Below are positions 1,869-39,639 of a stretch of DNA of 64,000 nt, piece after piece. A program made the position numbers and the translations under genes. The stretch is taken from the sequence record MN871446.1; one strand, written 5' to 3'. The DNA comes from Klebsiella phage KpLz-2_45. How positions within the stretch are numbered: the stretch's first letter is position 1; every line of letters begins with the position of its first letter. Under the pieces are notes generated by a model. That model made no database searches and was not told the DNA's origin. It saw only the letters and a list, made by a program, of their open reading frames with translations.

Positions 1869-4774
1869 TGTCTGATTACGACGTTAGTGCGGCGTTAGCG
1901 CGCGCACCGATTAACCCGGAATCCTTTCAGCGTGTAGGGATCGAATTCCTGACGAGCAAATTGAACGGTGACTCGTTAGTGGATGTAAATGCGCCCGCTA
2001 TTCACTTGCTCGAAGCGAGCAGTTCGATGGCGGCTTATCATATCCAAGAAAACTTTGCGTTAGACCGTCGCCATTATCGTTTACTTGCGCAGAACTACAT
2101 GGACCTTTATGGCCATCTTTCTGACGTTGATTACCTCGGTCGTTTTAGTTCACCGGGGAAAGTCACCATGCGGTACACTGTGAGCTACGATGACATTATT
2201 GCCAGCATGATCGAGGTCCCTGACACCAACCTGAAACGCGTGGTGATTCCGCGTTACACTGAAGTCAGACCAGGCGGTGATTACCCGTTAACGCTTCTCT
2301 ACCCGATTGAGATTCGACAGCTCCCGCATGACGGTTTACAAGTGGTGTTCAACACCGACGAGACCAGTCCGATTCAAACTTTGACTGATAACGTTCTGAA
2401 CTGGCAGTTCTTAAAAGACGCCACGAGCGATCAAGCAACTTATTTGCAGATTGAGATCCCCATGTTCCAGTTGGCCAGGAACAGTATCATCGAACAGATC
2501 TCCGACGGTAATTCTCGTTTCGCGGTACCGTTCACTGACAAATATTACTACGCCCGTGTTTTCCAGGGAACAAGCGGAAATTGGAAAGAACTCGGTACTA
2601 CGCACTCTCTTCAGGTTTACGACGCATCGTCTCCCACGGCGGTATTGCAAGTAGGCGACGGGGTTCTTAACGTTACGATCCCGCCTATCTATTACACAGC
2701 GGGCTTAGTCTCTGGTAACCTTCGTATCGACGTTTATACTACGCAAGGCGAGATCTACGAAGACCTGACTAACTTCGCAACCGAGAAGTTTCAGATCACC
2801 TGGGGAAAAGACGCCGAGATTCCTGATCTCGACAACTACTCATCGAGTATTCCTAACCTCCCTTATGCGTGGACGTCGACAGAAGCGATCACTGGGGGAT
2901 CAGACGGTTTGACGTTTGAGGAACTTCGTGAAAGAAGTATTTTTAACGTTTCTAATAGCGTAGATAATACTCCTATTACTCCGGCACAAATTTCTGCACG
3001 CTTGAATTTGTTAGGGTTTGATATTGTCAAATCCAGAGATGACATTGTTGATCGTCTTTATCTGGCGACCACGAATATGCCTACTGCACCGGAATCAATT
3101 CTCAATGCAGGGATTCCCGCAGCGATGACGACGCTTCAAACCAGTATTGAAAAGTTAACGAAAGTCCAGGGTGTTTACGATAACGGTGATCGTATTACGT
3201 TATCGCCGGAAGTGCTCTTCTCGTTAACTAACGGGGTGTTATCACTGGTCGATAATAACATGCGACCGGAAGTACTGTATAAAACCCCGGAAACATTTGT
3301 CAATGGAATCAACCAAGCGAACTACGCGTTTACTCCGTTCCATTACGTATTAGATACGAGTTCGAATGCGTTCTCATTACGACCGTATTACCTGCAAAAC
3401 CCGGAACAAACCAAACGCCGTTTTATCCGTGACAACGCCACGCTCCTGATTGACGTCAGTACAACCGGTTTCAACATCACCCGTACGACAACAGGCTACC
3501 GACTGACCATTGCTTGCACAGTGGGGCAGAGTTACTTAAACATCGAGGCAAGTAACCGTCATGTTCAGTTGGCCTTTATCCCTGCCGGGGAAAACGCTTA
3601 TGCTTATCTGAACGGAACCTTTATGGGGATTACCGGGAAAACGGCAGTCTGGGCGTTTGACTTTAAAACCAACTTCGATCTGGACAGTGACAACAATCTC
3701 ATTATCACCAACTTCAGTATCTTTGAGGAAGAACCGCGTAAACTGGCATTACCGTTAGAAACGGAGTTTATGTTATTACATGCGGTCAGCGGTGATGTTG
3801 ACGACGGTTATCAGTATTCGGCGATCGACGGATTGCTCGGTGAGTTTTTACTCCCTGACGACACGAAAGGGATCTCGCAAGAGTTTGTTACGCTGAAATT
3901 TGGTACAGCGTTAGAACGACTCTGGCACGGTGCACGTAACGTAGCCGGTTCTTACGTTTATCAGACCTACGCAAGTGACGTCTACGATTATTACACCGCA
4001 GACATCCCGGAATACGATGCAAACGGTGTCCCGGTCTTTGTCATTGAAAATGGTCAACCGGTGATCTCTTATGCTCACAAATCAGGGGATCAAAAAGTGG
4101 ATGGTTCGGGTAACCCGATTGTCTTACATAAGGCGGGCGACCCCGTTTTAGACAGTGGCGGTAATCCGGTTCCCGTATCCGCAAGACCGGTACTTCGTCT
4201 CATCGATCTCTTGATCTTTGACGGTAACTACGCCTACGTCTCTCAGGATACGGATTTGACAGATTTGAAATGGACAGCAAATAATCTGGCTAATACACAA
4301 CTCGAGAAATTAGCGGAATTAGGAAACGCAGTCCTGGAGAAAACCAATATCTACCTCTACCCGAAACGCGGCTTCGGTCCAATTTCGGTTGTCGTTGATG
4401 ACGGGGTGGAGAAAGTTATTGACTCGTCACTGACCTTTTCCGTGAAGTTCTATTTAACTGGGACGGCGTATCGTGATATGGACTACCGGGCTGCGTTACA
4501 AACGTTGACTGCGAAGATTCTGAACGATGGTATCCGAAACGAAACCGTTTCTGTCTCAACACTGGTTACGTTGTTGAAACCACAGCTCGATGAGAACGTA
4601 GTCGGCTTTGATATCAACATGTACGCACAAGGGACGGAGATGACCACCTTCACGCTTTCTGACGCATCGGTTCAACCTACCATTGATCGGGTGATTGAAT
4701 ACACCGAGGACGGTAAATACGCCGTGAAAGAAAACATTGAGTTTCTGTTTAAAAACCATACGGTAAGTAACTAA
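1868..4774 (+). CDS. large hypothetical protein (possible virion structural protein)
   Basis: 968 aa ORF translationally coupled to the upstream gene; followed by a hairpin terminator. Confidence 0.6.
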   Translation: MSDYDVSAALARAPINPESFQRVGIEFLTSKLNGDSLVDVNAPAIHLLEASSSMAAYHIQENFALDRRHYRLLAQNYMDLYGHLSDVDYLGRFSSPGKVTMRYTVSYDDIIASMIEVPDTNLKRVVIPRYTEVRPGGDYPLTLLYPIEIRQLPHDGLQVVFNTDETSPIQTLTDNVLNWQFLKDATSDQATYLQIEIPMFQLARNSIIEQISDGNSRFAVPFTDKYYYARVFQGTSGNWKELGTTHSLQVYDASSPTAVLQVGDGVLNVTIPPIYYTAGLVSGNLRIDVYTTQGEIYEDLTNFATEKFQITWGKDAEIPDLDNYSSSIPNLPYAWTSTEAITGGSDGLTFEELRERSIFNVSNSVDNTPITPAQISARLNLLGFDIVKSRDDIVDRLYLATTNMPTAPESILNAGIPAAMTTLQTSIEKLTKVQGVYDNGDRITLSPEVLFSLTNGVLSLVDNNMRPEVLYKTPETFVNGINQANYAFTPFHYVLDTSSNAFSLRPYYLQNPEQTKRRFIRDNATLLIDVSTTGFNITRTTTGYRLTIACTVGQSYLNIEASNRHVQLAFIPAGENAYAYLNGTFMGITGKTAVWAFDFKTNFDLDSDNNLIITNFSIFEEEPRKLALPLETEFMLLHAVSGDVDDGYQYSAIDGLLGEFLLPDDTKGISQEFVTLKFGTALERLWHGARNVAGSYVYQTYASDVYDYYTADIPEYDANGVPVFVIENGQPVISYAHKSGDQKVDGSGNPIVLHKAGDPVLDSGGNPVPVSARPVLRLIDLLIFDGNYAYVSQDTDLTDLKWTANNLANTQLEKLAELGNAVLEKTNIYLYPKRGFGPISVVVDDGVEKVIDSSLTFSVKFYLTGTAYRDMDYRAALQTLTAKILNDGIRNETVSVSTLVTLLKPQLDENVVGFDINMYAQGTEMTTFTLSDASVQPTIDRVIEYTEDGKYAVKENIEFLFKNHTVSN

Positions 4775-21881: not shown

Positions 21882-22342
21882 AGGTATTTGGTCTGCTCCA
21901 GGAAACCCTGAGACTCATAGAATTTCTGGGCAGTGGTGTTGTACAGGTGGACGGACAAACTAACTTGATCAACGGCTAAATGCTTTGCGAACATCCTAAC
22001 CTGATTCAGTAATGCTTTACCGTAACCATTACGACGGTATAGGCGTTTAACGTAAAGATAACTGATCGACATCCAGTTAATGCTGCCATTAGCGATAGGG
22101 TGCGTATACTCAACAAACCCTACGACATTCTCTTTATCCACTACCAGAAGAATGTTAGTTTGGTCAGTCCAACGATCAACGAGTCTTTCTGTTTTTAACT
22201 CGTTAGTAAGGATGTCGAGATTACTTCTCGATTTCCATAAAGTCGCTTCATTTTTATCCATGACATGAAACATGTCTAAAAGTTCTTTTTCATACTTGAT
22301 AGCTTCCGGATCTTCAGGACCCAGTAATAAAACAAATTCCAT
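21866..22342 (-). CDS. GNAT family N-acetyltransferase
   Basis: RRNGYGKALL acetyl-CoA-binding motif; about 158 aa. Confidence 0.6.
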   Translation of the reverse strand: MEFVLLLGPEDPEAIKYEKELLDMFHVMDKNEATLWKSRSNLDILTNELKTERLVDRWTDQTNILLVVDKENVVGFVEYTHPIANGSINWMSISYLYVKRLYRRNGYGKALLNQVRMFAKHLAVDQVSLSVHLYNTTAQKFYESQGFLEQTKYLCAKP

Positions 22343-22539
22343 AGTTTCTCTCCTGAATTGATGGCATAAAGGGAAGAGCTTCCGCCCTCCCCTTAGCCCG
22401 ATTATTTGAATGTCTCACGACAAGCAAAGTCGTATTGTTGCCACGCTGATTTCTCAGACGAAGCTACCGCGCTGGCATCGCGATTCGGTTAACAGGTGGT
22501 GCTGTTTACATAATAACAGGTCACCGCTGTTAATTTAAA

Positions 22540-22692
22540 TTAGCTGCCCAGTTTATCGCTAACCTTGTCTTTCACTTCGTTAAATTTTTCCGCTACTTTG
22601 TCCAGCGCCGGATCCATTTTAGCTTTGTGTTTACGATAAACAAAGATCGCAATAATTGCAACTACTACTACACCGAGAATAGTACCGATCAT
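22540..22692 (-). CDS. small membrane protein (50 aa)
   Basis: ATG at 22692; one hydrophobic TM segment then a K/D-rich tail; below the 60 aa cutoff of the ORF table. Confidence 0.3.
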   Translation of the reverse strand: MIGTILGVVVVAIIAIFVYRKHKAKMDPALDKVAEKFNEVKDKVSDKLGS

Positions 22693-22752
22693 CTTTTTGC
22701 GCCTTCAATTGATGAAAAAGAAAATGTATGGTTCATAAAATTAACAGCATAA

Positions 22753-22777
22753 AGAGAGGGTCTTTCGACCCTCTCTC
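22753..22777. terminator. hairpin
   Basis: agagagggtc-tttc-gaccctctct 10 bp stem. Confidence 0.4.
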
Positions 22778-23815
22778 GTACTGACTAATAGTCAAAAGGA
22801 TCTCAGTGTTTAGCTCATAGATGACTTATCGCACATCATCCTTTTCATGTTAAGGTCGCCACCGAAACATGTTTATTCTCGGCTATACGAGTTAGCTTAA
22901 TTTCCAGATTTTTAATACCCGATCCCTTCTACGTTGGAGAAATGGATCGAATAGGGTGACGCCCCCGGACATTTTTGCCGGCTCCTTGCACCTCTTTCGC
23001 CGGAATCCCCGGCTGAGGTCTATGGTCTATGGCCGCCTATTTTCGCTCTAAGGCGTAGGCCGCCGAAATTGACAGGCGTCATAATTAGTACCCCTCGGCC
23101 GATTCCGCGGCGCGTTTAACCGGCGGGTCGCCGAAGTCTTTGTCTCACGAGAGTTACCAATAAGTTATTGCTTATTGGACAAATCATTCGGATACGATTC
23201 CGAACTCCCTTCCTACCGAGCCTCTACTACCGAGCAGGAGTCGAACCTGCACTCTCTGTAAACAATATCACTTGACTAGAGCAGTATTGTAAAGGTTACG
23301 TGGACTTTAAAAGTGTAGAATGGGTATCAGTTAATTTGTTGCGGCCGCATACCGGTAACTGACTTCTTCTACTAGCGCCACCACTGACTCCGGTGTCTCG
23401 CCTAGTGGCGTTGTGCGACCCATTAACTCGCACTCTCTCTTTTAAGTCCAACTTTGGTTGATAGGTACCGAATCGAACGGCTATCTCAGGCTCCCATGTT
23501 AAGGCGCCCCTCGTATGAGAGGGGGCCTAATGCCCGCGCTTTACCTTTAAGCTAGCCTATCATTGAATAGGTTCCCTAGCACTCAATGAGTATCATCTAC
23601 ACCAGCAGCGCCCGGTGTTTAGCCGAGATGCAATTATGCTTAAATGGGTCGTATTTAACGGCTCATTTATTCGTCGATGATTTACGTAGGGATAACAAGG
23701 AGACATCCCCCTCAGCACGCCGAGGTCAACTTTTTCCTTAGGTCAAGATTAACTCTCCGCAACATTAAGTCGCCTGGTTAACCCCTGCCTTTAGTCTAAG
23801 CAAGATGTCATTATT

Positions 23816-23905
23816 TGGCAGAGAGTGAGAGATTCGAACTCTCGGTACCCTTTCGGATACACTCCCTTAGCAGGGGAGCGACTTAAACCGCTCATCCAAC
23901 TCTCT
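23816..23905 (-). tRNA. tRNA-Ser (anticodon GCU), class II with long variable arm, CCA encoded
   Basis: Acceptor AGAGAGT/ACTCTCT; anticodon arm CTCCC-CTGCTAA-GGGAG; long V-arm; T-arm GAGAG-TTCGAAT-CTCTC. Confidence 0.8.
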
Positions 23906-23912
23906 ATTAAAA

Positions 23913-23989
23913 TGGCGACTCTTCCAGGACTTGAACCTGGGACCTACAGCTTAACAGGCTGCCGTTCTAACCAACTGAACTAAAGAGTC
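23913..23989 (-). tRNA. tRNA-Asn (anticodon GUU)
   Basis: GACTCTT-TA-GTTC-AGTTGGTTA-GAAC; anticodon loop CTGTTAA; T-arm CCAGG-TTCAAGT-CCTGG; CCA encoded. Confidence 0.85.
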
Positions 23990-23995
23990 ATTATT

Positions 23996-24070
23996 TGGCG
24001 GTGCTACGGAGAATCGAACTCCGGTCTCCTCCGTGACAGGGAGGTATCCTTTCCGCTAGACGATAGCACC
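23996..24070 (-). tRNA. tRNA-Asp (anticodon GUC)
   Basis: GGTGCTA acceptor; anticodon arm CCTCC-CTGTCAC-GGAGG; T-arm CGGAG-TTCGATT-CTCCG; CCA encoded. Confidence 0.85.
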
Positions 24071-24077
24071 TTTTGTT

Positions 24078-24179
24078 TGGTTGTTCCCTTCCGGATTTGA
24101 ACCGGCAACCTCCTGCTAAGCAGTGGGCGGCGCAGTGGCCGCCGATGCAGGCGCTCTACCTAGTTGAGCTACGAGAACA
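24078..24179 (-). tRNA. tRNA-like gene with a 23-30 nt GC-hairpin insertion in the anticodon arm (intron-containing tRNA or pseudogene)
   Basis: Canonical D-arm GCTC-AACTAGGTA-GAGC and T-loop TTCAAAT; anticodon stem CCTGC/GCAGG encloses 30 nt including hairpin GGCGGC-CACTGC-GCCGCC and a direct repeat CCACTGC; acceptor has one mismatch. Confidence 0.4.
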
Positions 24180-24186
24180 TTGAATC

Positions 24187-24262
24187 TGGAGCAAGCAGCG
24201 AGGTTCGAACTCGCGACCTATGACTTGGAAGGACATCGCTCTACCAACTGAGCTATACTTGC
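24187..24262 (-). tRNA. tRNA-Gly (anticodon UCC)
   Basis: GCAAGTA-TA-GCTC-AGTTGGTA-GAGC; anticodon loop CTTCCAA; T-arm GCGAG-TTCGAAC-CTCGC; CCA encoded. Confidence 0.85.
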
Positions 24263-24340
24263 TTTGAATTTCGTTCATAAGATGATGAAATTACTTAATT
24301 TTTGATCCGCGCACCAGTATTCTCGTTAACCAACGGGGAA

Positions 24341-24796
24341 TTATATCTTTGGTTTCTTATTAGCCTTTTTACAGGCAGCTCTGTAACCGACCGTATCAAA
24401 AATACCATTGATGGAATGTTTAATGATTATACCCTGAGAAAGTCCGGTAAATAACGCGGCATCTCTAATCGTGTCATAGATCCACCCATCAATAACCCAA
24501 CAAGTTCTCCGTTTCACGTCGGCGTAATAATGAACTTCTTTACTATCATGATAATTATCACGATCCGTACCAATAGACAAATGCTCAGGATTACAGCAAC
24601 GGGTGTTATGGCAAGAATGTCTTACTACTTTACCAATTGGCACTGGCCCATAAACTGTAGTGAAGACAAATTTATGAGTTGTCCAATATTTACCGTTCCG
24701 TGTAAACTGGCCGTAACCAGCGCTATTGCAAGATTTATTCCAATTCCAGCAACCGGTTACTTTATCTACCGTTGTATTTTCTTTAATAAATTCCAT
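24341..24796 (-). CDS. HNH homing endonuclease
   Basis: GCWNWNKSCNSAGYGQF and HSCHNTRCCNPEHL motifs typical of phage HNH endonucleases; embedded between tRNA genes. Confidence 0.7.
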   Translation of the reverse strand: MEFIKENTTVDKVTGCWNWNKSCNSAGYGQFTRNGKYWTTHKFVFTTVYGPVPIGKVVRHSCHNTRCCNPEHLSIGTDRDNYHDSKEVHYYADVKRRTCWVIDGWIYDTIRDAALFTGLSQGIIIKHSINGIFDTVGYRAACKKANKKPKI

Positions 24797-24894
24797 GTGT
24801 TTATAATCTCTTTCTGTTAATTGTTTATCAACAGAGTGATATATATTTTAAGGAATTTTGGTTGCTCTATCCTGCTGAGCTAAGAGGACGTAGA

Positions 24895-24979
24895 TGGTGC
24901 CCAGGGCGGGGCTCGAACCCGCACGCGATAAAGCGAGGGATTTTAAATCCCTTGTGTCTGCCGATTTCACCACCTGGGC
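24895..24979 (-). tRNA. tRNA-Leu (anticodon UAA), class II
   Basis: GCCCAGG acceptor; 3 bp D-stem; anticodon arm AGGGA-TTTAAAA-TCCCT; long variable arm; T-arm GCGGG-TTCGAGC-CCCGC; CCA encoded. Confidence 0.8.
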
Positions 24980-24984
24980 AAATA

Positions 24985-25060
24985 TGGTGGGTCCAGCAGG
25001 TTTTGAACCTGCGACCAAGCGATTATGAGTCGCCTGCTCTAACCACTGAGCTATGGACCC
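24985..25060 (-). tRNA. tRNA-Ile (anticodon CAU, lysidine type) or Met-elongator
   Basis: Anticodon arm GGCGA-CTCATAA-TCGCT and D-arm identical to E. coli ileX (tRNA-Ile2); T-arm GCAGG-TTCAAAA-CCTGC. Confidence 0.75.
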
Positions 25061-25111
25061 GAAAACGATGTTTTATTAAGAGCACATAAATGTACCCTTT
25101 GTAAAATACCG

Positions 25112-25276
25112 TCAGCTCGATTGTTTCTTTTTCTTTCTGAAAGCAAGCTGCACATAAACGGCAATTGCACCAGCAAGAATAATAAGCAGGACAATATCAA
25201 TCAATACGCCTGCCATTCGAAACAACACCAAAAAGATGACGGCCAGTAATATTAACCAGCCGATCTTTTTCAGCAT
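25112..25276 (-). CDS. small hydrophobic membrane protein (54 aa)
   Basis: MLKKIGWLILLAVIFLVLF... two TM-like segments and a KKKK tail; below the ORF-table size cutoff. Confidence 0.3.
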   Translation of the reverse strand: MLKKIGWLILLAVIFLVLFRMAGVLIDIVLLIILAGAIAVYVQLAFRKKKKQSS

Positions 25277-25279
25277 AAC

Positions 25280-26137
25280 TTATTTTCCCGACGCTGTACC
25301 CTGAACGCGCGCAGAGTTCTTCAGAAGAATTGTAGAGGCATCTTCAAGGAACTGGTCGCTGTCGCCTGAGGTATTCGCTACCACCAGGGTTTTAGTGCAA
25401 GGGACTTTTACTGTCGAATTGAAAAGGATGCCCGAGTCGGTTGTTGCTTTTTCGATCGTGTACACCGCTTTACCGTTCGGCAGTTTTGCATCAGCATTCC
25501 AGGAGTTGAAATCAATGATCTCGAGTCCCGAGTCTTTTTGCATGACTGCGTCCAGGAATTTATTATTCCGGTCGGGTGCAGAAACCCAAAGGAACGCGTC
25601 GTATTCGCCAGTATTCACTTTAGCCAGGGAACGGATACCGCCTTTGGCATACGTTTCAACTTTCGCGTAGTTTTTCTCCAATGTCTGGAGATACTGCCAC
25701 GAAGCGTAAGATCCAGAGGTAGGTTCGCCCACAGCGATCTTCGTACCTTCTTTTAAATCACCTTTACTGGTGACCTTACCGTCTTTCTTGACGGCGACAA
25801 AGACGCACTCGCTGGCCAATTCGCCAATGATATCAACGTTCTGTGCTTCATTGGCATGACGCGAACGCCAGAACTGATAGGCATCAGCTTGGGTAAACCC
25901 GATAGTGGCTTCTCCCGAGGCTACACGATCAAGGTTATCGAGTGAGCCTTTAGAAGGGACAACCGAGGTCTGGTAACCGTACTCACCCAGAGCACTGGCT
26001 AAGTTTACACCATAAATGGCGTTATAGGTTAAACCTTGTTGACCGGTGGTAATAACAATTTTGCCATCGGCCGCGGATACGCCAGCACTCATGCAAAGTA
26101 ACGCTACCGAAATCACGGCAAAAGCAAGTTTCTTCAT
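25280..26137 (-). CDS. periplasmic substrate-binding protein (PBP fold) with signal peptide
   Basis: MKKLAFAVISVALLCMSAGVSA signal peptide at the internal Met (tabulated ORF extends to 26227); mature domain about 260 aa with SBP-like composition. Confidence 0.5.
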   Translation of the reverse strand: MKKLAFAVISVALLCMSAGVSAADGKIVITTGQQGLTYNAIYGVNLASALGEYGYQTSVVPSKGSLDNLDRVASGEATIGFTQADAYQFWRSRHANEAQNVDIIGELASECVFVAVKKDGKVTSKGDLKEGTKIAVGEPTSGSYASWQYLQTLEKNYAKVETYAKGGIRSLAKVNTGEYDAFLWVSAPDRNNKFLDAVMQKDSGLEIIDFNSWNADAKLPNGKAVYTIEKATTDSGILFNSTVKVPCTKTLVVANTSGDSDQFLEDASTILLKNSARVQGTASGK

Positions 26138-27739: not shown

Positions 27740-27785
27740 AAATTCCTCAATTAAAAAGTGTCTTCTACATTAAAACGGTTTACCG

Positions 27786-27826
27786 TAAAAAAGCATAGGA
27801 GAGAGGAGGGAATTCCCTCCTCTCTC
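27786..27826 (-). terminator. rho-independent terminator ending the tRNA-like cluster transcript
   Basis: GGAGAGAGGAGGG-AATT-CCCTCCTCTCTC stem followed by T6 on the minus strand. Confidence 0.6.
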
Positions 27827-27992
27827 GATTAATTCATTTATCAAAAAGTGATCTCTTTGAAAAAGAAACTTTTGTGGTAAGAAGGGCGGAGGTAAGGATA
27901 TAACCATCCCCAACACCGCCCATAGCCATTCAGCTATAAACAGAATTTAGCGCGACCTATCTAAGAATAAGATTGGAAGTTTTATTTTATAA

Positions 27993-28023
27993 TCTAGTGC
28001 TCTACCGGCTGAGCTATCTGCCT
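27993..28023 (-). other. tRNA 5' half Y (acceptor 5' strand, D-arm, anticodon-stem 5' strand), downstream member of a permuted pair
   Basis: AGGCAGA-TA-GCTC-AGCCGGTA-GAGC-A-CTAGA; followed by a degenerate vestigial 3' part (CTTAG ATAGGTC GCGC TAAATTC). Confidence 0.45.
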
Positions 28024-28050
28024 CCAAGAAACACTCTGTGAATGTGTCCA

Positions 28051-28087
28051 GGTAGGCAGAGCGGAATTCGAATCCGCGACCTCTAGA
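28051..28087 (-). other. tRNA 3' half Y (anticodon-stem 3' strand, V-loop, T-arm, acceptor 3' strand), upstream member of a permuted pair
   Basis: TCTAG-AGGTC-GCGGA-TTCGAAT-TCCGC-TCTGCCT-A-CC; acceptor 7/7 and anticodon stem 5/5 complementary to 5' half Y, which lies 27 nt downstream. Confidence 0.45.
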
Positions 28088-28210
28088 ATTCTTTCCGTAA
28101 AAGAAAGAAAGTTCAGTCCGCTATTTTACTGTTTACTCTTTATCTTTAAGCGTGTGAGGCGATAAGATAAAGTTAACACTAACCATCTGGGTCGCATTAT
28201 GGGTGCATTG

Positions 28211-39265: not shown

Positions 39266-39639
39266 TTCTCCTCCGTTTGGTATTTTAAGAGCATAAAACG
39301 AAGTCCCTCACGGACTCCGATAAATAGTTAATCAAATAGTATTTAAAAAATGATTACCCTAAAAGAATAGGTCAACCCCAGTAACCGGCAAGGATGTCGT
39401 TCAGTCTACTCGATCTCGCTCCGTTCCGTATCCTCCCCCTCTACGAGTGTGAGTCTACTACACTACTCTCGCTCTCGTTCCCTTCACTCCTCTCTTCTTG
39501 CCGGTTTCAATTTTGTTCATAATAATAAAAGTAGTAAAATTTTAATTTCCTCTATTCGAACGTTAGAGAGAATAGATTAGGAATATTTATTTCTTAGTTT
39601 ATTTAATCCTTGAATTAACGATACTAAAGAATCTTTCGA

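Follow-up and report, generated by a model that had tools for sequence, protein, structure and literature searches.

Bacteriophage T4 has two stable RNAs of ~120-140 nucleotides (nt), species 1 and species 2 (rnaC and rnaD), to which no function has been assigned after 50 years. The ROOL and GOLLD RNAs occur in phages and prophages, often near transfer RNA (tRNA) islands, and phage tRNAs themselves can act as a counter-defense against systems that target tRNA. Here we describe a locus beside the tRNA array of Klebsiella phage KpLz-2_45, a jumbo phage of ~300 kb. The analysis covered a 64,000-nt stretch of its genome (record MN871446.1; hereafter the window), and positions are those of the window unless another locus is named. 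Positions 22745-23815 read as the distal, non-coding part of a phage tRNA operon, in which structured small RNAs lie head to tail with no protein among them; the central one is an RNA of 170 nt with relatives in many other phages. We are highly confident of this anatomy taken alone, and regard the anatomy and the processing model set out below, taken jointly, as likely. Stable tRNA-like RNAs beside a phage tRNA cluster are of a kind known from T4; the locus described here is richer, and its central RNA is uncatalogued.

An earlier note on this DNA, made from the sequence alone, had described the region as free of open reading frames (ORFs) in a genome that is mostly coding. This is correct: the largest ORF in any frame of 22693-23815 is 51 amino acids (aa) long, no stretch of the window free of ORFs of at least 60 aa is longer than 22343-24340, and ORFs of that size or larger cover ~90% of the window. 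The conserved protein that might have been hidden here did not appear, as none of the eight ORFs of 30-51 aa in the region matches a PHROG family at E ≤ 1. The differences between related phages are compensatory in stems and show no codon periodicity. The region is without coding potential, and its conserved structure is specific to the minus strand and under selection.

Structure of the Core RNA

In the window copy of the 170-nt RNA, which we call the core or "double-elbow" RNA (Table 1), helices 1, B, C, 2, 3, 4, and 5 can be formed in this order with Watson-Crick or G-U pairs. T-arm-type hairpins make up helices 1 and 2: their 5-bp stems have a G-C pair next to the loop, the loop reads UUCGAUU in most members of the family, and a conserved GG-UGNGA motif comes after each. 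Single-sequence folds are unremarkable in energy (z between -1.2 and -3.3); the structural support comes from comparison with other phages and not from thermodynamics. RNAalifold, run on a 23-sequence alignment, found compensatory changes in 26 of 30 pairs. For a 17-sequence alignment with a hand-curated structure of eight helices, standard pairs make up 90.2% of pair cells, and both partners vary in 30 of the 37 pairs; 0 of 500 shuffles reached the observed values, and slid controls gave 36%-49%. Realignment of 28 members gave 93.8% standard pair cells and compensatory changes in 32 of 37 pairs, again matched by 0 of 500 shuffles. The strand could be fixed as minus because G-U pairs are common in the family alignment.

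Two tertiary pairs covary as well. The pair between base 3 of loop 1 and the second G of GG motif 1 is CG in 19 members, AU in four, GC in one, UA in one, and some other combination in two. Its counterpart, between base 3 of loop 2 and the second G of motif 2, is CG in 24 members, AU in one (phage OBP), UG in one, and other in two. Where a member lacks the C56 equivalent in its first T-loop, the second G of its first GG motif is altered to match, and in five members a U55-to-G55 change in loop 2 accompanies a G18-to-A18 change in motif 2. These covarying positions are the signature of the tRNA elbow (G19-C56, G18-Psi55), present twice in one RNA. The first elbow of the window copy is canonical (C23243-G23216). 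The second is the family's single U-G case, with loop 2 (AATCGTAT) and motif 2 (TCG for TGG) both off consensus.

Four further pairings were considered and rejected. A pairing of GAAGGGAG with UAACUCU joins two segments that are both near-invariant, with no compensation; a pairing of the 3' GAGGGG with CCUCG is not conserved; the variants of a pairing between the helix 5 loop (GGAAUC) and a T-loop (GAUUCC) do not covary; and the alternative pairs given by RNAalifold (columns 86-110 and 87-109 of alignment A1) conflict with hairpin B and were not kept.

Helix 1 is the canonical T-arm to which the earlier note had drawn attention, GCAGG-TTCGACT-CCTGC, found exactly at 23234-23250 on the minus strand and followed by TCGGTAG twice. 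That note took the T-arm to be isolated and to suggest tRNA fragments or halves. It is in fact one helix of a 170-nt RNA family conserved in many phages and not an orphan half, and TCGGTAG belongs to a covarying hairpin and linker, not to an acceptor strand. The T-arm runs on into TCGGTAG-TAGA with no CCA, unlike transfer-messenger RNA (tmRNA); ARAGORN found no tmRNA in the window, and no Rfam tmRNA family matched at E ≤ 10. Two low-stringency ARAGORN predictions, a tRNA-Ser(ACT) that joins the 23234-23250 T-arm to a 113-nt intron and a tRNA-Leu spanning 579 nt, were rejected as artifacts of the relaxed threshold.

Distribution of the Core RNA Family

In a distant BLAST comparison, Shewanella phage SXP01 and Erwinia phage pEa_SNUABM_10 were similar in short islands. 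A pattern from the best-conserved island, TAACTCTNGTGAGACAA, occurs in 32 IMG/VR contigs, ~22 of which share 60-190 nt of flanking similarity; 11 of the 32 matches lie inside coding sequence and were set aside as chance. A second IMG/VR pattern, CCGGTTAAAC..GGAAT..GAGGGG, gave six loci, among which L041 and L042 are non-members according to model R1, a covariance model built from the 17-sequence alignment (the window copy is one of the 17 seeds, and the E-values are rough owing to a shortened calibration). R1 scores 80-179 bits on 26 non-redundant loci including the window (153 bits), and on loci outside the seed set it scores 135 (L003), 144 (L044), and 162 bits (L046). Among 185,579 bacterial and archaeal species genomes, one per species, only two contigs, both from metagenome-assembled genomes, carry the family; at 95-98 bits they were added to it. 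The family now has at least 28 members in diverse phages and is essentially phage-only.

Cultured carriers are the Pseudomonas phages OBP, D6, Holyagarpour, and Ebordelon, Salmonella phage SA002, Shewanella phage SXP01, and the FBKp24 group. Among the records of OBP, D6, Holyagarpour, Ebordelon, SA002, SXP01, and FBKp24, none annotates the core RNA as an RNA. In SA002 (locus L056, 2552-2671) a 39-aa "hypothetical protein", QKE54521.1, is annotated over the conserved RNA, which is probably a mis-annotation. The core RNA has tRNAs directly on its flanks in about half of the loci, and in the remainder the locus contains none; wherever flanking genes are annotated, the core RNA is oriented as they are. 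In SXP01 (locus L005) an unannotated ORF of ~160 aa lies between the core RNA and a tRNA-Asn, at ~2700-3180 on the minus strand; the SXP01 record has 193 features for 270 kb, with no tRNAs annotated in this stretch. An uncultured 258-kb phage contig with the core RNA (locus L032) also holds a group I intron, at 4445-4755 on the minus strand (Rfam, 73.7 bits).

The Rfam scan that the earlier note had proposed gave nothing credible within the region at E ≤ 10 and detected the seven adjacent tRNAs. At the gathering threshold, Rfam finds only tRNAs in the whole window. The tRNA family itself (RF00005, gathering threshold 29 bits) has no match in 22700-23815 even at E ≤ 10, and the seven tRNAs at 23816-25060 score 38.9-73.3 bits. 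ROOL and GOLLD have no match in the whole window at the gathering threshold or in the region at E ≤ 10. YrlA (RF02553) gives only sub-threshold scores of 18-22.5 bits against a gathering threshold of 69, over real tRNAs and none in the region, and Pistol and small nucleolar RNA hits in 22000-25500 at E ≤ 10 are at chance level. No Rfam family covers the conserved RNA in seven homologous loci, and in a full-text literature search two 15-mers from the most conserved segment occurred in no paper. We consider the core RNA family uncatalogued, as set against Rfam and the literature searched here; it could be among the 10,006 viral candidate structured RNAs (csRNAs) of PMC10690425, where it would be unnamed. 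R1 has no match in the T4 rnaC/rnaD region (locus L047, E ≤ 1) or in Erwinia phage tRNA regions.

The Row of tRNA-Like Units

The core RNA stands in a row with four tRNA-like units, M1, A, B, and D2. In each, a 7-bp acceptor-like stem closes the unit, the T-arm position is taken by a hairpin, and the discriminator is followed by CC(A). The spacers between units are A/U-rich and 6-9 nt long, as between the true tRNAs of the array. A blind scan for 7-bp stems followed by N-CC (span 70-135 nt) gave five matches for the minus strand against zero for the plus strand; in 500 dinucleotide shuffles the mean was 0.77 and five was never reached. The units that flank the core RNA have an acceptor-plus-CC architecture. 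The acceptor-like stems of M1 and D2 consist of six Watson-Crick pairs and one G-U pair followed by N-CC, and that of unit A has six pairs and one mismatch followed by A-CC. M1, A, and D2 have no tRNA-type anticodon arm in the right place.

Unit A is known from four phage lineages only. Its core (46-65 nt) is 89%-96% identical in Erwinia phage pEa_SNUABM_10 and Shewanella phage SXP01, and it adjoins or lies near tRNA-Ser(GCT) in all four phages (window, FBKp24, Erwinia, and Shewanella); in FBKp24 it is shorter. Across the four lineages, the acceptor stem, P2, and the mini-hairpin all show compensatory changes, and the minimum-free-energy fold agrees with the assigned structure. The hairpin CTCGG-CTAAACA-CCGGG resembles an anticodon arm, but the topology is not that of tRNA; ACTC/GAGT occupies the T-arm position. 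An exact-pattern scan for the unit A core gave no matches in IMG/VR, and five matches in a metagenome collection were rejected as chance, having no flanking similarity.

M1 begins 6 nt (AATAAT) past the CCA of tRNA-Ser(GCT) and has a hairpin, CCTC/GAGG, directly 5' of the 3' acceptor strand. Its fold closes with the acceptor-like stem (z = -3.29, 0 of 200 shuffles as stable), and it is found only in the eight closest relatives. The interior of D2 contains GGCGGCC repeats, ATAGACC ATAGACC, and the hairpin GCCGG-GGATT-CCGGC, with CCGG/CCGG in the T-arm position. D2 and the 5' two-thirds of D3 are nearly invariant in the window, FBKp24, and Centimanus, in a locus that is ~83% identical overall (FBKp24), and one interior hairpin of D2 changes in a compensatory manner (GCCGG/CCGGC versus GCCGA/TCGGC). 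For D3, the stem and N-CC scan returned an alternative stem, CGTCACC/GGTGGCG plus A-CC (22961-22854), which overlaps the 3' end of D2. Insertion I is missing at a clean junction in FBKp24 and Centimanus and is present only in the eight closest relatives. Toward its 5' end it is similar to the 5' part of the core RNA (AGAGAGTGCGAGTT, CGCTAGTAGA), which suggests a diverged partial duplicate of the core RNA 5' end; the fold of the insertion has z = -2.48, and the repeats D4, D9, and I11 were detected.

At the position that D2 holds after the core RNA, an IMG/VR jumbo-phage contig (locus L016) carries an acceptor-closed tRNA-like unit that ends in ACC. A giant unit of L016 (~4240-4410, minus) lies directly after the core RNA and has the stem GACGTCA/TGACGTC plus ACC around two sets of D-arm and T-arm and an anticodon-arm-like hairpin, as if two tRNA bodies stood under one acceptor stem. 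Similar sequence is found in locus L017 at ~3470-3600 (plus). The tRNA array of Erwinia phage pEa_SNUABM_10 (locus L006) has ORF-free gaps at 2948-3337 and 1868-2402 with more unannotated acceptor-closed units, one of which (3249-3331, minus; GGAAGTA...TGCTTCC plus A plus CCA, 83 nt) was not called by ARAGORN. Erwinia phage Kwan has comparable array gaps (locus L007, 2878-3251 and 3330-3867).

The motifs that the earlier note had named in this region are all present to within 1-2 nt. The hairpin GAGAGGGTC-TTTC-GACCCTCTC lies at 22754-22775, GCCCCTC-GTATGA-GAGGGGGC at 23506-23526, and the tandem GGTCTAT GGTCTAT at 23017-23030. GGCCGCC is there as well, at 23031-23037 and 23058-23064, as a direct repeat and not as the true palindrome it had been taken for. 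The note's large structured non-coding RNA is right in essence: the region is non-coding and packed with conserved RNA structure. It contains tRNA-like genes that the note had not recognized, namely a cloverleaf with an encoded CCA and three acceptor-closed units ending in N-CC.

Table 1. Positions of the RNA units, core RNA elements, and accompanying features in the window, in minus-strand order
Feature	Position	Strand	Description
HNH_3 endonuclease ORF, 151 aa	24341-24796	minus	Pfam 43.9 bits; inside tRNA array
Second tRNA-like gene	24078-24179	minus	Between tRNA-Asp and tRNA-Gly; 23-nt GC-rich hairpin inserted in anticodon loop
Unit M1	23699-23809	minus	GACATCT/GGATGTC stem, then T-CC; stem and N-CC scan
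Unit A	23570-23692	minus	TCCCTAC/CTAGGGA plus A-CC; P2 ATCATC/GATGAT; variable hairpin; CTCGG-CTAAACA-CCGGG; mini-hairpin ACTC/GAGT
Unit B	23455-23562	minus	tRNA-Pro(UGG)-like cloverleaf; ARAGORN intron mode
Insertion I	23297-23454	minus	158 nt, lineage-specific; closed by 11-bp stem TGGACTTTAAA/TTTTAAGTCCA
Candidate promoter	23264-23293	minus	TTTACA-18 nt-GATATT, just upstream of core RNA; consensus scan
Core "double-elbow" RNA	23089-23258	minus	170 nt, between B and D2; model R1, 153 bits, model positions 1-171 end to end
Helix 1	23250-23234	minus	T-arm-like hairpin, then hairpin B
GG motif 1	23217-23216	minus	Followed by GAAGGGAG
Helix 2	23204-23187	minus	Second T-arm-type hairpin
Helix 3	23178-23157	minus	Loop CAATAA
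Near-invariant 18-nt segment	23156-23139	minus	TAACTCTCGTGAGACAAA; UAACUCUGGUGAGACAAA in most members
Helix 4	23133-23121	minus	Core RNA
Helix 5	23111-23098	minus	Loop CGGAAT, then GAGGGG
Unit D2	22955-23080	minus	GACGCCT/GGGCGTC plus A-CC; stem and N-CC scan; 9 nt after core RNA
Segment D3	22780-22954	minus	Hairpins TCGATCC/GGATCGG, CTCG-TATAGC-CGAG, GATGAT/GTCATC; fold z = -1.77
Intrinsic terminator	22745-22775	minus	GAGAGGGTC-GAAA-GACCCTCTC plus T-rich tail; annotated terminator in FBKp24

tRNA-Like Genes with an Inserted Hairpin

Unit B has the acceptor TGATAGG/CCTATCA, a discriminator A, an encoded CCA, the D arm GCTT/AAGC, and the T loop TTCGATT. Its anticodon loop carries a 33-nt insertion that holds the GC hairpin of 23506-23526, so that the anticodon stem (CGGGC/GCCUG) encloses 40 nt including that hairpin and there is no 7-nt anticodon loop. 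The minimum-free-energy fold is a cloverleaf with an extended anticodon arm. Unit B is nearly invariant in FBKp24 and Centimanus, with one anticodon-stem pair that is G-U in the window and G-C in both relatives. It is annotated as "tRNA-OTHER" in phage MJ359 and has no Rfam tRNA match at E ≤ 10.

The second such gene lies within the array (Table 1). Default ARAGORN misses it and intron mode calls it; it scores 38.9 bits against the Rfam tRNA model, is likewise "tRNA-OTHER" in MJ359, and has an ambiguous anticodon identity. In an uncultured 276-kb phage contig (locus L017), a tRNA directly downstream of the core RNA (3274-3382, plus; Rfam 50 bits) has a hairpin of ~35 nt inserted in the anticodon loop. 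On the sequences compared here, insertion-bearing tRNAs seem to recur in jumbo phages.

Genomic Setting and Transcription

The locus is 99% identical to those of "Serratia phage KpYy_2_45" and Klebsiella phages LPKP23 and MJ359, 91%-95% identical to Centimanus, and 83%-84% identical to FBKp24 (Maaswegvirus). The minus strand carries the tRNA genes at 23816-25060 together with every flanking protein gene. The earlier note's placement of the region upstream of the tRNA array holds in plus-strand coordinates only; in the direction of transcription it is downstream of tRNA-Ser(GCT), and it ends at a hairpin that is annotated as a terminator in FBKp24. This hairpin is a perfect 10-bp inverted repeat (I10), with compensatory stem changes in relatives (GGGTC/GACCC, GGGCC/GGCCC, and GGACC/GGTCC), and it is predicted to close the tRNA and non-coding RNA transcription unit upstream of the gene for a 50-aa membrane protein. 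A candidate promoter just before the core RNA is invariant in FBKp24 and Centimanus and may add a second start.

Where the window has the HNH_3 endonuclease ORF, MJ359 and LPKP23 have tRNA-Gln, tRNA-Tyr, a small coding sequence, and tRNA-Arg. The window is without those three tRNAs, which suggests that their replacement is linked to the homing endonuclease. Only two other stretches of at least 300 nt in the window, 27774-28125 and 39266-39598, are without an ORF of 60 aa or more; neither has an R1 match or an Rfam match at the gathering threshold.

Proposed Processing, Function, and Alternatives

tRNA-processing enzymes recognize a minihelix of acceptor and T-position hairpin plus CC. We propose, as a moderately likely course of events, that the units would be co-transcribed with the tRNA array, possibly with an extra promoter before the core RNA, that RNase P would cut on the 5' side of each acceptor-like stem, that 3' trimming by exonucleases and the CCA-adding enzyme would finish the 3' ends, and that RNAs as stable as T4 species 1 and 2 would be released. 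The purpose served by such RNAs is more conjectural. We favor a role as tRNA mimics or decoys because phage tRNAs have been linked to escape from tRNA-targeting defenses. It is conceivable, though rather doubtful, that the RNAs mimic tRNA in the infected cell: the double-elbow RNA might occupy or titrate a reader of the elbow, such as RNase P, the ribosomal L1 stalk or E site, a tRNA-modifying enzyme, or a tRNA-directed immune nuclease, and the insertion-bearing tRNA-like RNAs might be uncleavable decoys for anticodon nucleases. With slightly more assurance, as a tentative proposal, the core RNA would be the first recognized phage-specific "double-elbow" tRNA mimic, M1, A, B, and D2 would be decoys processed by RNase P, and together they would form an RNA-only module for counter-defense or translation takeover.

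Several observations weigh against this account. The link to a tRNA array is not obligatory, as about half of the members have no nearby tRNA, and the neighboring genes are heterogeneous, with no shared protein partner in 15 loci. We infer the transcription, the processing sites, and the stability of the units alike. In the core RNA, the second elbow may be degenerate in the window phage, helix D (CTC/GAG, three pairs) is invariant and so unproven, and the near-invariance of the 18-mer is partly a matter of ascertainment, most members having been found with a pattern taken from it. The N-CC ends are without the final A except in B, and after the alternative D3 stem FBKp24 has ACT rather than ACC. 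M1 and insertion I are confined to near-identical relatives, have no support from covariation, and could be recent junk. The consensus scans for promoters and terminators were overall not above chance.

The perfect cloverleaf of unit B, with its encoded CCA and strong conservation, raises the question of whether it and the gene at 24078-24179 are genuine decoding tRNAs from which short introns are removed after transcription. ARAGORN in intron mode reads them in this way, with introns of 33 nt in a tRNA-Pro(UGG) and of 23 nt in the second tRNA; the second has its 38.9 bits to the Rfam tRNA, and L017 supplies the similar tRNA at 50 bits in another jumbo-phage contig. Against this, bacterial tRNA introns are, to our knowledge, spliced only as self-splicing group I or group II introns. 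The group I model (RF00028) has no match in 22000-25500 at E ≤ 10, although the same tool finds the intron of L032 that served as a positive control, and a hairpin of 33 nt cannot constitute a group I intron. The predicted insertion lies inside the anticodon, at 34/35, rather than at the archaeal and eukaryotic site, 37/38. No bulge-helix-bulge was noticed on reading the unit B fold, with no dedicated motif search made, and unit B has no match to the Rfam tRNA model. We regard spliced decoding tRNAs as unlikely. More improbable still is the idea that the region as a whole is the debris of a fast-turning tRNA array, composed of decayed pseudogenes and duplication remnants. The content of the array does vary: FBKp24 and Centimanus lack M1, full-length A, and insertion I, the HNH endonuclease gene stands where relatives have three tRNAs, insertion I has the look of a diverged partial duplicate, and several family members have T-loops that depart from consensus. 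Decay is hard to reconcile with a core RNA in which 32 of 37 pairs and the tertiary contacts covary across phages of Klebsiella, Pseudomonas, Salmonella, Shewanella, and uncultured hosts, with a nearly invariant B, D2, and much of D3 against a flanking identity of ~83%, or with compensatory change in unit A in four lineages. It possibly fits M1 and insertion I only.

The earlier note's remaining suggestion, a replication origin or packaging element, belongs with the wider possibility of a cis-acting DNA element, which would include an array of protein-binding sites. A large gene-free region with short direct repeats (GGTCTAT twice and GGCCGCC twice) might be expected of such an element, and the cumulative GC skew has a local maximum at 21-22 kb, ~1 kb from the region. 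The turn of the skew lies outside the region, however, there is no switch of gene orientation at the site, and we suspect, from the FBKp24 annotation, that the turn corresponds to a change of gene orientation ~2-3 kb to the left. The repeats fall inside unit D2 and are not iterated further. Many conserved pairings are G-U and valid on one strand only, the acceptor-type closures are on the minus strand only, and the RNA family occurs elsewhere in unrelated contexts, oriented as the annotated genes around it. We hold a DNA element to be highly improbable. An unrecognized or frameshifted protein gene, or a set of very small ORFs, is hardly credible. Two ORFs of 51 aa (23296-23451, minus; 23586-23741, plus) and the 39-aa product annotated in SA002 over the homologous RNA could be cited for it, but one of the two ORFs lies in a lineage-specific insertion and the other crosses unit A on the opposite strand. 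Every frame is interrupted by stop codons, the eight ORFs of 30 aa or more are without PHROG matches, and the substitutions are paired across stems and not codon-periodic. A row of structured RNAs at the end of a tRNA operon remains our preferred reading of the region.

If the double-elbow mimic is real, a function open to test could be put forward for the orphan-RNA class that T4 rnaC and rnaD have typified since the 1970s, and the two-elbow fold is a clear structural hypothesis. The core RNA is supported by covariation and present in such well-known jumbo phages as OBP, FBKp24, and SA002. Non-tRNA RNAs within phage tRNA arrays have been overlooked, though the arrays are now viewed as tools of counter-defense. 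Standard tRNA finders miss a layer of jumbo-phage genes, made up of acceptor-closed units and tRNAs with a hairpin in the anticodon loop, and at least one record fills this annotation gap with a 39-aa ORF placed over the RNA.

Comparison with Known Systems

Like rnaC and rnaD of T4, the units described here lie at the distal end of a phage tRNA cluster and on the tRNA strand, and rnaC itself ends in a T-arm (CCGGGTTCGAATCCCGG) followed by an acceptor-like strand. No homology between the two sets was detected by R1, which covers the core RNA only, or by eye. T4 has two such RNAs where this locus has at least five units, and a double-elbow architecture is not evident in either rnaC or rnaD. ROOL and GOLLD are, like the core RNA, phage-borne, protein-independent structured RNAs that tend to lie beside or between tRNA genes and have no assigned function. 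At 170 nt, however, the core RNA is much smaller than either (~580 and >800 nt), and its building blocks are tRNA-type modules. Its carriers are for the most part phages of proteobacteria, jumbo phages among them, and bacterial genomes are essentially free of it.

The resemblance to tRNA is one of parts. T-arm hairpins with the G53-C61 closing pair and UUCGAUU loop, a Watson-Crick equivalent of G19-C56, and 7-bp acceptor-like stems with N-CC(A) are all found here, and unit B has the full cloverleaf. The core RNA differs from tRNA in having two T-arms, no acceptor stem, and no anticodon arm, and its order, in which the T-arm precedes the GG motif, is the reverse of that in tRNA. T-loop modules also organize T-box stem I, the RNase P specificity domain, and elbow recognition by the ribosomal L1 stalk. 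The core RNA shares with these elbow readers the use of T-loop modules as an organizing tertiary motif, and its UGNGA pentanucleotides after each GG motif resemble T-loop motifs. Unlike the T-loops of the readers, those of the core RNA would pair with its own GG motifs, as in the elbow of tRNA itself, which points to a mimic and not a reader.

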